Assembly (NCBI GenBank): GCA_951406725.2
Contig: OX597822.1
Location: 3,162,001 to 3,226,000, forward strand
Length of the DNA: 64,000 nucleotides
Reading direction: 5' to 3'
DNA from: Octopus vulgaris
Taxonomy: Eukaryota
Part shown: positions 491 through 49,318 of the stretch, piece after piece
How the letters are laid out: every line of letters begins with the position of its first letter
Position numbering within the stretch: position 1 is the first letter of the stretch
Program-made: the position numbers and the translations under genes
The notes under the pieces: model-generated
Seen by the model: the letters and a program-made list of their open reading frames with translations, nothing else
Told to the model about the DNA's origin: nothing
Database searches by the model: none

Positions 491-714
491 TAAAATTATA
501 AATTAGGGGATCTATGAGATACCACCACGCTAAAAATAGCAGCCATGATCTGACTCTAAATCTCTAAAACCACCTTAATTGCCCATATATCAACACAGAG
601 AGAAAACAAAGAAACAAGATGAAACTAGTAAAAAATTAAGGTGGTTTTAGAGTCAGATCATGGCTGCTATTTTCAGCATGGTGGTATCTCGTAGATACCC
701 TAATTTATAATTTT
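491..714. mobile_element. Fold-back element next to (TA)n, related to the HHR/(TA)n element group
   Basis: Arms ~491-580 and ~633-714 are reverse complements; motif ggctgctattttcagc at 662-677; accct at 697-701 just before (TA)n; no intact HHR seen. Confidence 0.6.
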
Positions 715-1125
715 ATATATATATATATATATATATATATATATATATATATATATATATATATATATATATATACATATATATACACATACGTAAGTGT
801 AAAACGAAGTGGACAAATGTAGTACTTGAAGACAAAAGGTACTTACATAACACATAAAGCATACGTACATACATACACAGATACATACGTACATACATAC
901 ATTACATACATACATATATACATACATACATACATACACACATACATACACAGATATATACGTACATACATACATACATACATACATACATACATACACA
1001 CACACATACATACATACATACATACAAACATACATACATACATACATTCATACATACATACATACATACATCCATACATACATACATACATACATACATA
1101 CATACATACATACATACATACATGT
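715..1125. repeat. (TA)n and (CATA)n microsatellites
   Basis: Directly visible. Confidence 0.95.
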
Positions 1126-1199
1126 AAAGATATAAATTACAGAAAAACTATCCTTGTTTAATATCAGGTGAAATCTCTAATTTCAAGTGCTGCTGATTT

Positions 1200-2560
1200 T
1201 TGGTCCTATTTTTATCTTTATATTACTATGCAGGACCACACGCAGACTCTCTGGCAGTCACACTCTCACACCGTTAAAAAATGACCCTGAGATATATATT
1301 AATTACAAAAGATAAGAAAATTAACTTCGTGTGGCTAAACTGAAACTTCACATTCGTCATGTCAGGCGAGAAATCAACGCGTGGGATGAAAATTCTTGCT
1401 ATCTTATTGCAACATGTTATTTCTGCACGAAGAGTTTCTTTAACGATAAGCAGCGTTCAGTTACTAAGACTATTCTAGATTGAGGATATGAACTACCTGC
1501 ATAATTTAGCTAACATTCACTTTGAAATTATGAGACACATTCCGGATGGAATTGGCTCATATATGAATTTCACAGGAAGCTTTCAATCCACATTGTCATC
1601 ATATTAAAAAATAGAATTCTTCATATTTCCTATTTGAATTTATACCTATTTCTTATGCTATTTCATATTTGAATTTATTACACCTGCTACTACTTCTATT
1701 TCATATTTGAATTTATCCCTACATTTGTATTCCTCTGATATAAGAAGTAAAAACTGAAAAATGTGTTTGCTAAGTTTTAATGCGTCCTTATGCTTTGCAG
1801 CACGTAAAATCTTCCTGGACAACTAACTCATTGCTGGTATTGATTGAATCTCCAAAAATATTACTCACAATATCTATCTTTATTGTATTGATTCCTAATG
1901 GTGTGGGAAGCCCGGCATCATAAAATCCCTGTTTGTCTTGTTAAAGTTCCATTACCAATGCTTAAGATCCAACTGTTAAATTCTTTTGTCTATTTTGTCT
2001 AGCAGGAATCATATTGACTGTGAGATGGACTACTTCCACGCTTTTCGCTAATGGAAAAGTTTTTAATGAATGATTCTATTATGGTGACTTTAACGATTAA
2101 TTTGGCATCTGACGAAGGCCTTCACCAAGTACCAAGTAAAAATGTCTTTCTGCGAAAAAGGTGACCGGTCAACGCAATCTCTTTTATAAACTGGTCAATT
2201 AAACACTGTATATCACTTGATAAAGTAGAGACTTTCTCAATAATGATATGAGATATGTCATAAACACGCTGTGCACCATAGTATCATTTCTTCATTGATA
2301 AATTTGTTCCTATCACTGGAACGGAACTGGAAGCTTAAAGCCTTGGTGCGCAATTCGTCATTCTTTGAGCAAATCAACAGCTACTCTAGTTGTTACGAGA
2401 CAAAAAAAATCCGAACTTTCTTTGTATCGAGCGGATGAGTACGTTGTAAAGGTAGGTTTTTCTCCAGGTTCACCAGATCCGTCTTAGAAGAAAACTCCTT
2501 GTGTTTTTTGGCATTAATAGTGACCTGATTTATCTCAGAATCAGTATTTTGTATGGAATT
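1200..2560 (-). mobile_element. Degenerate Helitron PIF1-type helicase fragment
   Basis: Frameshifted minus-strand translations in the expected order: DGSGEPGxKTYLYNVL (Walker A-like), VAVDLLKE*RIAHQGFKLP, TFLLGEGLRQMP (GGDFRQILP-like), EFNSWILSIGNG, IFIPRVD. Confidence 0.75.
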
Positions 2561-2609
2561 AAGAGTATTCTTCCATTAGCATTTCATTGTTGCTTCAACG
2601 TATTTACTT

Positions 2610-2922
2610 GAGACGCATAACTAACTGGCAATCCGTCGGTTATGATGACGAGTGTTTCCGATGATCCGATCAACCGAACAGTCTACTTGGGAAATTCCGC
2701 AGACACGAGAACTTTTAACCTAGTTCTTAGGAAGAATTAACACAAAACATGAAAAGACTGGCTCTTTGAATAACAGGGACAATTCATTTTTGTCCAGCTG
2801 AATGCACCAGAACAACGTAAAATAAATGTCTTGCTCATGGACACAACATACCATCGAGAACTGAACTCATGAGTCTACGATCGTAAGTTGAATACTCTTA
2901 GCCACTTAGCCATACGCCTTCA
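2610..2922 (-). mobile_element. tRNA-derived SINE (family 3, head tgaaggcgYRtggct)
   Basis: Homologous to 54255-54580; A/B box-like head and gtgtccWtgagcaagaca body. Confidence 0.75.
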
Positions 2923-3289
2923 CGTTTAGGATCCATAATTAACTATTGGACATCAATCTGGTAGGCAAAATAGGGTACAATTAAAAGCAGAAAACTCTCT
3001 TGGGTAGAATCCTGAAAACTCTTCTATATATGTATTTGAATGCGTTTGATACCATTTTATAAGATCTTTTGGTTGGTTGAATGTCCATTTTTTGCATAGG
3101 TTTGTTTGCTTCATACGACATGGTTTGTCAACAACGCAGCTACTTCCAGACATCTCATCTATTCATTTCCTTTAGTAAGGTGCGTGTGAACTCCTAGAAA
3201 TTTCAAACGTTGGCACCGGGAGCATGCTTTTGTAATAGAAGATGAATTCGCTCAATGTCCCTGACAGAATAAATCCTTGGTATTACTTT

Positions 3290-46699: not shown

Positions 46700-46905
46700 G
46701 ACTAAGCACCTGAAGACATATGTTTCTGTGTCTGTCTTCAGGTGCTTAGTCCCAGCTGGCGGGGGTGATTGCCTCCCCTTTGCAAATATAAGGTCACAGA
46801 AAATGTGTCAACGCCGACAGGAGACGTCGATGTTTCCTAGGGCTAAATGGCGGTGGTGTAATTCCCTTACGGGACTGTCACATTGAGTTGACGGTATACG
46901 ACCAC
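46700..46905. mobile_element. 206 bp insertion with 14-bp TSD and terminal fold-back
   Basis: tataattaaagttg at 46686-46699 and 46906-46919; hairpin at 46696-46757. Confidence 0.65.
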
Positions 46906-47489
46906 TATAATTAAAGTTGTTTACGCCATAAGAATTTATAACCTTCCAGATAAGGTGAAAAATATATATTTACTCCTCTCGGAATAAATATAACGCTATA
47001 AACAATAACATGTTAGTTAAAATAAACCCCATTGCATGGAAAGACAAATTCGAAGGCCGCCCGTGGGACGTCAATAATTTTTTTTATAGAACGTAAAACT
47101 TTTGGTTTGTTGTGTTCTTGTGATTGCAATAAAACGAATGACATAAAAATTCTGTGGAAGAAAACATGAAAACATATTCGCCTATTTGTAAGACTGGCGG
47201 TGTGGTGTGTGATGAAGCTTGTGTGCAGACATAATTCATTGGCAATATATTGTTTAAATGAAATTTAGCAATCAGCAGAATAATTAATAAATTATATATC
47301 ACAACATTCTATACTTTCTCAGATGAAATGTTTGCAACGTACCTGTTAATAACCAACTCCGCCCATAAGAAAAAAGTACAAAAATATAATAACTTGTAAA
47401 TCAGTTTAACACTGGGAAATTTTAATTATGTAACGTAAAGAAGCAATACAAATATAATGAGAATCATTCATTAAATATTGGTTATTAAA

Positions 47490-48600
47490 CTAATGAGACA
47501 TCTGGCTTTGATGTGATTCAGAAATTTCATTTAGTTGTGGTGGAATATTTCACAAAGCTATGTGTAATTCTATTTCTTCAGATAAGAGATGATGTAGCCT
47601 CGTTTTGATGTTCGTTAATGAAGAGAACGCCAAATATGTATAAATATGTGGCATAAAACATCAATAATACTTTTAAAGCTTTTTTCTGCAATCCGTGAAT
47701 ATTCTTTTATATCGTTATGCAGCCGTAAGATGATTACTACTGTAGGAATCTTCAAATAATGATGGAATTATTATACCCGCTAAACATTATTGATGGCGGA
47801 AGAAAAATAATGGAATACTGTGTCTTGTTGCAGAGTTAAATGTTCGCGCATTAATATCTGTTTTATAGTTCCGTGTGTCTGCATTGCAAAATCACGGCGA
47901 AAGTTTTCTCTCTCCATGGCGTATTTTTTTTCCCTATGATAACTGATTTGGGGAGAAGGCGTCTATTTTTTTCCATCGTAACAAATGACTTGTATTCACG
48001 GTAAGGATCCGTTTAGAATATTTAATAGACCGTATACTTCTGTGAGTCTGCATTGCAAAACACGCTTAAGTCTGTTTTCTCAATGACGCTTGTTTTATTT
48101 ACCTAATATCGAATATCTGGAGAAAGCATCTATCTTACTCGTTGAAGCAACTGATATACTGGTTGTCCCAGTATCAATTCATTAAGACAGTCTCCAAATT
48201 GAAATAAATCCGCAAAATCCTAACCTAATCTAACACACAAACCATTGAATGTTAAATGACGAGCCTAAGAAGGATTTCTCTCTCTGATAAACAACCCCAT
48301 ATCTTTTTTCAACGTGCAAATGAAGTTGCAATAGGATTCGGGAAATGTTTGAAGAAGTATGACTGTAGAATTCTATAAGGATAATTATTCTCCCAACTCA
48401 ATTTCCACAGTGAAGATTTTTCCATGTCTGTATACACATGAATTTGTTAAATACGAATGTTCACCACAACTTTAGTTTAATTATCGATACTTAGTTTGTC
48501 TTTAGGTAATTGACTAGTTTTAGCTTAATAAAAGTTTGCACACACCAGTAAGTTTATTTGCCGCAAATATAAAAGAACAATAGTTCTTAGTGGTCTATGA
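47490..48600 (-). mobile_element. Decayed hAT (Charlie/Buster-like) transposase
   Basis: Frameshifted IKEYSRIAEK/ALKVLLMFYATYL/AFSSLTNIKTRL...AL*NIPPQLNEISESHQSQMSH* matches the hAT C-terminal dimerisation domain; upstream boundary approximate. Confidence 0.65.
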
Positions 48601-48796
48601 AAGATGCTTTGCGTATCAATAGCTGAAAAAACATAACGATGCAGAAACACGTGGCCTTCGGGTAATGTCATTCACAAACCTGTACGGGATTCTTTCGCAC
48701 ACAAAAAACATGAATGCTTTAAATTATACATGCATAACTTTTCATGCACATACACACACATCTATATATATATATATATATATATATATATATATA

Positions 48797-48940
48797 TATA
48801 AGGTTGTCCCAAAAGTTCGTAGAAAGTCTTGGAAAATAATGGTCTTTATTTTGAGGAATAATTTTGTTGTTTTTGTTAGTACTTGGCGAGTAAAAGTTCA
48901 ATTTTCGCAAGTGCTTACGAACTTTTGGGACAACCTAATA
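48797..48940. mobile_element. Mariner-type MITE
   Basis: TIRs aggttgtcccaaaagttcgta / tacgaacttttgggacaacct; TA context. Confidence 0.85.
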
Positions 48941-48944
48941 TAAG

Positions 48945-49318
48945 AATTAGAAAAAAAACCCACCTTTTATCAATTCAATTACACCTTCTACAAAATTACA
49001 TATAATAAAAAATATTAGAATTAAAATAACAATAATATACCGATGATTAAGTAAATTGCAAAATAATTATAAAAACGTATATATACCAAATATATACGTT
49101 TTATTATTATTTTGCAATTTACTTAATCATTAGTATATTATTGTTATTTTGATTTTAATATTTCAATTATATGTAATTTTCTAGATGGTGTAATTGAATT
49201 GATAAAAGGTGTTTTTTTTCTAATTTATATATATATATATATATTATATTTTGTTAAATTTGGTTTAGAATTTCTAAATTGAATTTTTCCCTGTAAGTTA
49301 GGAATAATATTCCCTCAT
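48945..49318. mobile_element. AT-rich palindrome plus conserved (TA)n-joined terminus
   Basis: Arms 48945-49086 / 49090-49227; terminus related to 44068-44115. Confidence 0.65.

Follow-up and report, generated by a model that had tools for sequence, protein, structure and literature searches.

Where does the copying of a non-coding hammerhead repeat into a (TA)n tract begin, and from what template? The window analysed here, a 64,000-nt stretch of an Octopus vulgaris contig, holds several such repeats. A sequence-only reading of them had proposed a single start site, marked by CCCT and a short AT-rich patch before (TA)n, and rolling-circle copying from that site. The six CCCT-type strings it named are present, at 697, 16527, 23968, 39852 and 49311 on the plus strand and at 44076 on the minus strand, and (TA)n follows each. 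Its fixed internal ends, its (TA)n targets and the reading-through of hammerheads stand; the single CCCT site and the rolling circle lack support. The insertions have two fixed 3' end points, a proximal one (X) and a distal one (Z), 86-105 nt apart, a duality absent from that reading. Our reading is that these non-coding, (TA)n-seated repeats, several of which carry predicted type I hammerheads, probably travel as retrozyme-type passengers with a Penelope-like retroelement; its enzyme would nick (TA)n and start reverse transcription internally at both points.

The tandem elements belong to several unit lengths. An insertion of a 490-bp unit consists of an inverted arm of 0.96 unit (14980..15450, minus strand), whose outer end is X and which has one hammerhead (15199-15109), and a sense arm of 2.22 units (15460..16545, plus strand), which runs through a hairpin, ACCCT and ATTAT to its end at Z. 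Its predicted type I hammerhead (16220..16310, plus strand, cut after 16310; second copy at 15730-15820) has an 8-bp stem I and a near-palindromic stem III. A 558-bp unit is present in 1.18 copies without an inverted arm (23329..23986, plus strand), with a variant hammerhead core at 23641-23685 and, again, a hairpin, ACCCT and ATTAT leading up to its Z end. The 477-bp element (39083..39861) joins an inverted arm (39083-39213), with its outer end at X and its inner end lying 4 nt beyond the predicted cut, to a sense arm of 1.36 units that has a hammerhead at 39563-39621 and its Z end at 39861. Missing from the earlier list was an older fold-back element (16562..17499) with a Z end at 16562 (minus strand, no CCCT), an X end near 17490 and a degenerate hammerhead whose cut falls at 16813 on the minus strand. 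The claim that 3' ends lie within the unit, away from the ribozyme site, is borne out in the 490-, 477- and 558-bp elements, which end 235, 240 and 301 nt downstream of the cut, and none of the listed 3' ends with an assignable cut coincides with it (distances of 83-301 nt). The upper figure of 2.75 units had come from a 362-bp hammerhead element with a U3-A8 core (39890..40883, minus strand); its 3' end has ATTAT and lacks CCCT, yet it also lies 235 nt past the cut.

Several observations suggest that the predicted hammerheads look real. In our own pattern scan the full type I motif was found in four tandem families, with at least two whole copies in the 490- and 362-bp elements and one each in the 477- and 558-bp elements, and among variants in public contigs the cut triplet alternates between GTC and GTA while stem III swaps to other palindromes, so that both triplet and palindrome are kept. 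Two Rfam searches gave no hammerhead match at the gathering score; by E-value, nearly all of the best 150 of 250 rows were microsatellite matches to miRNA models, and a MAFFT alignment of the hammerheads was uninformative. Unit GC is 31-41%, below the 50% limit for retrozymes. No element contains a long ORF, and the sole ORF of at least 100 aa in the tandem units (in the 362-bp unit) has no Pfam match. Because no Penelope-like protein gene (RT plus GIY-YIG) was found among the seven ORFs scanned, which yielded one RVT_1 and two mariner fragments, all outside the elements, we only infer the Penelope-like partner.

The family abounds in public contigs from two organisms. It is hardly credible that the inverted and tandem structures are artefacts of assembly or amplification: microsatellites are dense here and no single public contig spans a unit, but the arms diverge by 1-20% across elements that share one architecture, and head-to-tail joints occur in contigs of three of four runs, including run X2 (whose RNA label is a guess), the same joint being found in DNA runs. 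Summed contig depth, which is not copy number, drops past 16056 in all three DNA runs and recovers in two. Among 24 of 206 loose contig ends listed, three carry TA letters, two of them possibly from this very locus.

The remaining CCCT strings, at 697, 44076 and 49311, belong to a different kind of structure. There the claim of an end within a tandem unit fails, for these are non-tandem, short asymmetric fold-backs without a whole hammerhead core on either strand; the ends at 16527, 23968 and 39852 do lie inside tandem units with a whole predicted hammerhead. The first fold-back (405..713) has a plus arm ending at X (713, previously placed at 697) and a minus arm that continues 86 nt further, to Z at 405; thus 697 marks a real fixed end, of the proximal type, with the opposite arm running 86 nt beyond the same point. 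It contains what is predicted to be a hammerhead's 3' half, made up of GAAA, a palindrome and GTA (621..630, plus strand), and the inner end of its long arm lies 2 nt past that cut, where about 0.03 such motifs would be expected by chance in the 53-nt centre. The other two are AT-rich and lack a hammerhead: 44060..44601, with Z at 44060 (minus strand, TCCCT), X at 44601 (plus strand) and a tail of 86 nt, and 48945..49316, with X near 48949 (minus strand), Z at 49316 (plus strand, TCCCT) and a tail of 91 nt. A single-arm relative of these two (45826..45988, plus strand) ends at X without CCCT; its start falls within a predicted hammerhead 3' half (cut at 45838). It should be noted that 48945..49316 is joined to the group only through its likeness to 44060..44601.

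Could these three fold-backs be unrelated MITE or foldback DNA elements with long inverted repeats, with CCCT before (TA)n a coincidence? They lack a hammerhead core and any ORF, they are very AT-rich, the excess of CCCT across the window is weak, and a profile search of the window failed to recover the element at 49311. However, the element at 697 has the exact motif shared by the larger elements as well as the hammerhead 3' half, an asymmetry of 86-91 nt is seen in all three, the element at 44076 scores a profile E of 0.008 (though it helped to build the profile), and its alignment with that at 49311 beats 1000 of 1000 shuffles. Symmetric terminal inverted repeats, as in MITE or foldback elements, are not found, since one arm is always 86-105 nt longer. 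We therefore hold this alternative to be improbable. A whole hammerhead in a tandem unit, as in retrozymes, is likewise missing from all three (697 has the 3' half only), and they are at most truncated retrozyme derivatives.

The pairing of ends is the most regular feature of the locus. Each of the six two-armed insertions has one X and one Z end (P 0.016 if independent), with X-to-Z tails of 86, 86, 91, 93, 103 and 105 nt; this end analysis covers eight insertions, related by descent, with ends assigned by hand. In the 490-bp element the 105-nt tail (16440..16545, plus strand) contains two predicted hairpins. About 38 nt upstream of X lies a shared motif of the GCTGYTRTTTYYAG type (16389..16402, plus strand; further copies at 676, 530 on the minus strand, 23807, 39717, 17448 and 16702 on the minus strand), and hairpins stand upstream of the ends; the 362-bp element has no match to the motif. 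Its unit was likewise left unmatched by the profile, which found no further member in the window at E <5. Fixed 3' ends with variable 5' ends are seen for the copies in the window, and in a separate hammerhead family four of four copies end 97-105 nt past the cut. Target duplication is not readable within (TA)n. An 18-nt motif found at 48 metagenomic loci was taken as chance, with neither a microsatellite downstream nor a canonical hammerhead upstream at any of the 48.

CCCT does not define these ends. Only 6 of the 19 RNA-sense 3' ends in a hand-made list of hammerhead-related elements in the window have it, and CCCT as a general signal was dropped. Two sites are present where one had been proposed, and CCCT sits mostly on the distal one (5 of 7 distal ends, 1 of 7 proximal ends and 0 of 5 ends in two other hammerhead families). 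Of the 91 non-microsatellite (TA)n flanks in the whole window, nine have CCCT in the 25 nt before them, compared with a background of 4.7% (P ~0.03); two of the nine belong to another repeat family and one (3868) to none of these elements, and six of 91 taken alone are no significant excess (P 0.25). A looser CCT/CTCT pattern, picked after inspection of the data, is present at 12 of 14 group ends versus a 21% background. At all four distal ends with a known internal continuation ATTAT is followed directly by (TA)n, with 2-5 ATTAT sites per unit, and the junctions have 2-4 nt of TA/TAT letters in common with the target.

What can be read directly comprises the ends, the head-to-head arms, the joint presence of X and Z, the motif before X, the hairpins, and intact hammerheads that were read through. 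A Penelope-like enzyme may bind close to the shared motif and nick (TA)n, one target end then priming at Z and the other at X, perhaps aided by the TA primer pairing over 2-4 nt with U/A-rich RNA; the resulting pair of cDNAs would be joined head to head. CCCT would then be the foot of the terminal hairpin beside the start, with no role as a universal signal. The 490-bp insertion is suggestive in this regard, as its sense arm begins exactly one base past X, where the inverted arm starts (modulo 490). L1 twin priming combines priming at the poly(A) end with priming at a random site. The 490-bp insertion resembles it in that the start of its inverted 5' arm adjoins that of the sense arm with a few filler bases between, and differs in that priming occurs at two fixed positions inside the RNA.

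A single primer might also suffice, with reverse transcription starting at Z and the cDNA 3' end folding back to prime the second strand; on arriving at the AT patch at X this strand would be linked to the other target end, and X would be a joining site and no start site. Five two-armed elements are indeed fold-backs with a common arm centre, with palindromes at the centre of those at 477 bp and 49311; Penelope self-priming at such palindromes has been proposed (PMC3846280), and modulo 490 the 490-bp element is also compatible with a fold-back, at an 18-nt offset. Yet a single arm ending at X without a Z arm exists (45988), the 490-bp sense arm starts at exactly X+1, and a purified enzyme initiates at each of the two tail boundaries, with extension of both strands (PMC11167929). 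We regard the single primer as somewhat unlikely.

The template is a separate matter. Under priming at both ends, the short fold-backs would derive from RNA that had been cleaved by its own ribozyme, and the arms of 1.2-2.2 units from a closed circle, which has a little more than an even chance in our estimation, or, with a fair amount of doubt, from an uncut multimer. The 3.2 passes of the 490-bp element differ at 1/490, 0/106 and 3/472 positions and agree at 14 of 15 selected letters that often or mostly differ in other copies from public contigs; these near-identical passes with private letters therefore favour one re-read monomer. Rolling-circle copying is nevertheless unsupported as a claim, since every insertion can also be explained by an uncut multimer, and two arms have their end 2-4 nt beyond a predicted cut. 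The template could instead be linear: a genomic tandem would be transcribed into a multimer that stays uncut, with no circle, and arrays would grow through duplication of the DNA or through template jumping on a single monomer. Arms that end 2 nt and 4 nt beyond the predicted cut are what linear cut RNA would be expected to give, the main substrate of the Anolis enzyme is uncleaved RNA (PMC11167929), and 8 of 9 Xenopus retrozyme dimers showed no cleavage in vitro. On the other side, an array cannot become longer when a linear multimer is copied, all 490-bp passes have the same private haplotype although the family is very diverse, and the 490-bp inverted arm ends 18 nt short of a full turn. 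We regard the linear multimer as somewhat less likely than not. A bolder scenario, which we put forward tentatively and think unlikely to hold in full, is that a dimeric Penelope-like enzyme obligatorily primes both cut (TA)n ends on one retrozyme circle, at sites set by the conserved motif and hairpins ~90-105 nt apart; in the 490-bp insertion one polymerase would have rolled 2.2 turns from Z and halted a single base before the second primer at X; that primer would have been extended for 0.96 turn until it met the first, and the outcome would be a genomic footprint of rolling-circle twin priming.

The core mechanism is not new, and the earlier model is largely published with respect to two-site internal initiation, AT-rich targets, (TA)n bias and a circular template, the last proposed for more-than-unit copies (PMC4209133, PMC7229834). 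In the Poseidon PLE of Anolis (PAc), a hammerhead lies upstream, the tail is delimited by two internal start sites, and AT-rich DNA is cut and extended on both strands; ribozyme cleavage is unnecessary, and the starts lie ~85-92 nt past the cut by the paper's ORF coordinates, where genomic copies end (PMC11167929). PAc is autonomous, unlike the octopus elements, and is reported to initiate without homology to the primer, whereas octopus junctions share 2-4 TA-type letters. EN+ PLEs including Naiad have partial tandems, an inverted 5'-truncated copy, a tail at one end, palindromes at the inverted junction and a (TA)n preference (PMC8557442; PMC3846280). The octopus insertions likewise show partial tandems with an inverted 5' copy, and a tail at one end only in six of six two-armed cases, of 86-105 nt against the 30-40 bp published for PLEs, PAc included; Naiads differ in being protein-coding, without canonical hammerheads and with shorter tails. 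Metazoan non-LTR retrozymes (PMC7229834; bioRxiv 10.64898/2026.07.22.740005), as described in the available text of those papers, also consist of non-coding units in tandem, each having one type I hammerhead and GC <50%, in a length range that includes the octopus units; a Penelope-like partner and a circular template are proposed there, and insertion ends, tails and inverted arms are unmapped in that text. Expression and circles are demonstrated for them, whereas the octopus elements are known from sequence alone. The available part of a killifish Neptune paper held nothing relevant. New here are the long tails, the strict pairing of X with Z and the shared motif upstream.

The families described here bear on how animal retrozymes insert and on how tandem, inverted and tailed Penelope-like copies originate. 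In them, hammerhead repeats that are non-autonomous bear insertion marks of the Penelope type, and their 490-nt unit, with its candidate recognition motif and its pair of predicted start sites, is a substrate short enough for testing.

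Tandem repeats with predicted hammerheads are named here by unit length in bp (490 at 14980-16545, 558 at 23329-23986, 477 at 39083-39861 and, on the minus strand, 362 at 39890-40883). The 490, 558 and 477 elements, together with short fold-backs (405-713, 44060-44601 and 48945-49316), end at two fixed internal points, a proximal end, X, and a distal end, Z, both RNA-sense 3' ends that bound a stretch termed the tail. A short shared motif anchors the alignment of seven elements, with X ~38 nt downstream of it where sharply defined and Z 86-105 nt beyond X. Six of the aligned elements have head-to-head arms, and in all six X terminates one arm and Z its partner (P 0.016 assuming independence; the families are kin, and ends were assigned by hand). 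Single arms are found at either end: the 558 element stops at Z and an arm at 45826-45988 stops at X. The fold-back at 48945-49316 is a putative member, placed in the group solely through its likeness to that at 44060-44601 (0 of 1000 shuffles as good; score 66 versus 59 for the best unrelated window); it was missed when the window was searched with the group profile. The 5' end of the 558 element (23329) and the inner end of the 490 inverted arm (15450) both map ~20-27 nt downstream of X, where a favoured stop may lie.

The sequence-only reading had proposed that 3' ends converge on CCCT before (TA)n, away from the ribozyme cut. All six strings that it listed (697, 16527, 23968, 39852 and 49311 on the plus strand, 44076 on the minus strand) are present and lead into (TA)n, and its three tandem elements (490, 477 and 558) terminate 235, 240 and 301 nt, respectively, beyond the site of predicted cleavage. 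Ends distant from the cut also occur in elements lacking CCCT, namely the 362 element (235 nt beyond the predicted cut) and all four copies of a second hammerhead family. These solo copies of at most ~220 nt (17495-17605, 23095-23308 and 32457-32656 on the plus strand, 40918-41124 on the minus strand) all terminate in TTAAC, 97-105 nt beyond the predicted cut, and three begin at nearly one point, ~75 nt upstream of the core. As a general mark, however, CCCT fails: in a hand-compiled list of 19 RNA-sense 3' ends, 6 carry it. Window-wide, 91 flanks of (TA)5+ runs are not themselves microsatellite, and 9 of them have CCCT within 25 nt, versus a 4.7% background (P ~0.03); three of the nine are outside the studied elements, and the remaining 6 of 91 are not significant. 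The signal is weak across the window and meaningful only family by family. The end at 697 belongs to X, an end class absent from the earlier proposal. In the 490, 477, 558 and 405-713 elements a hairpin is predicted whose 3' foot is ACCCT, and all four distal ends with a known internal continuation pass into (TA)n right after ATTAT, despite 2-5 such sites per unit. A hairpin-adjacent position with a few TA-type letters is a better descriptor of the end than CCCT alone; the original observation is real, yet narrower than claimed.

Rfam searches of the window returned no ribozyme match at the gathering score. Our own pattern search, directed at type I hammerheads whose stem III is palindromic, made 10 matches. 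Eight are whole motifs spread over the four tandem families; another, at 41042, belongs to an additional family, and that at 23569 is regarded as chance. Cuts are predicted after 15820, 16310 and 15109 (minus strand) in the 490 element, at 39621 in the 477 element and at 23685, with a variant core, in the 558 element, while the minus-strand 362 unit has the U3-A8 core variant known from PMC4209133. The three fold-backs are asymmetric and contain no whole core. The 490 unit folds much better than shuffles (z -6.0) and was found in 20 of 24 listed public runs from 10 studies (19 of these runs from two organisms); in each large DNA run the contigs that match it number in the thousands. Among these contigs either GTC or GTA serves as the cut triplet, and stem III takes the form of other palindromes, as would be expected for a selected dimeric hammerhead. 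Contig evidence on end positions is thin: of 206 loose contig ends 24 were listed, and three of these 24 carry TA letters. One follows 16056 (Z), one follows 15951 (X) and one precedes 16101 (another 5' start). Those at 16056 and 15951 may represent this very locus; a further contig, differing at 6 of 114 letters, likewise ends at 16056. Summed contig depth drops beyond 16056 in all three DNA runs yet recovers in two of them, and is no guide to end positions. A metagenome motif scan gave 48 matches, which were chance-like.

Judging from DNA anatomy alone, these elements were most likely inserted by a Penelope-like protein acting in trans. Such a protein would nick both strands of a (TA)n target and prime synthesis at two points of a single RNA, Z and X, with head-to-head joining of the two resulting cDNAs. 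The purified Poseidon protein cleaves both strands of AT-rich DNA and initiates internally at two sites bounding a tail, with ribozyme cleavage dispensable (PMC11167929). The main rival to this two-primer route is a single primer followed by fold-back second-strand synthesis terminating at X; in PMC3846280, one inverted repeat carries a tail, the junctions are palindromic and self-priming is proposed for Penelope.

Under the Penelope-like route, short fold-backs would derive from cut RNA and more-than-unit arms from closed or uncut RNA. In the 490 insertion the inverted arm starts at X and is 471 nt long, and, after 9 filler bases, the sense arm runs from X+1 (modulo 490) through 2.22 units to Z. 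Passes differ at 1/490, 0/106 and 3/472 positions, and at 14 of 15 variant positions (chosen from 40 listed rows for an alternative letter at about half depth or more) every pass carries the window's letter; therefore all 3.2 passes come from one monomer haplotype. This would fit a repeatedly read circle and also a young clonal array. Circular RNA serving as template when copies exceed one unit, with a PLE as likely partner, is proposed in PMC4209133 and PMC7229834. The 477 inverted arm stops 4 nt past its predicted cut and the long arm of 405-713 stops 2 nt past a cut predicted from a half motif (chance expectation ~0.03), which counts against a circle-only view. Twin priming is known for L1, and its combination with rolling-circle copying is a rather unlikely reading here.

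The window has 35% GC, dense microsatellites and mariner and RT fragments, and none of the ORFs scanned is that of an intact retroelement. Elements of distinct hammerhead families adjoin back to back within the same (TA)n runs (14980-17605, 23095-24060 and 39083-41161), as if each had inserted into the others' target repeats. An abundant and presumably SINE-like repeat forms partial tandems of 184-217 bp (3287-3528, 13380-13613, 18844-19274, 20028-20671, 35913-36448 and others). Mariner-type transposase remnants (18408-18818, 52226-52732) occur along with a short inverted-repeat element beside the 48945-49316 fold-back (48801-48940), and two further inverted-repeat elements outside any assigned family (5426-5873, 50606-50878). 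A pyrimidine-rich repeat contains a minimal hammerhead-like motif (55600-55630), and two diverged direct repeats at a spacing of 620 bp (44837-44950 and 45457-45568) have a core-like heptamer near 44990.

Partial tandems, an inverted 5' copy, a one-sided 30-40 bp tail and (TA)n bias have been described in PMC8557442, and retrozymes are presented as non-autonomous PLE derivatives in bioRxiv 10.64898/2026.07.22.740005, the available part of which leaves the mechanism open. PMC8969392 and PMC12602865 contribute little on these points. No mapping of retrozyme insertion ends, long tails or the motif shared here was found in a survey of titles and abstract openings, with supplements and most subscription papers outside its scope. 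As proposed here, insertion largely follows the route already known for Penelope. As variations on that route, the tails here are 86-105 nt, X and Z are strictly paired and an upstream motif is shared, and the Penelope-type marks sit on non-autonomous hammerhead repeats.
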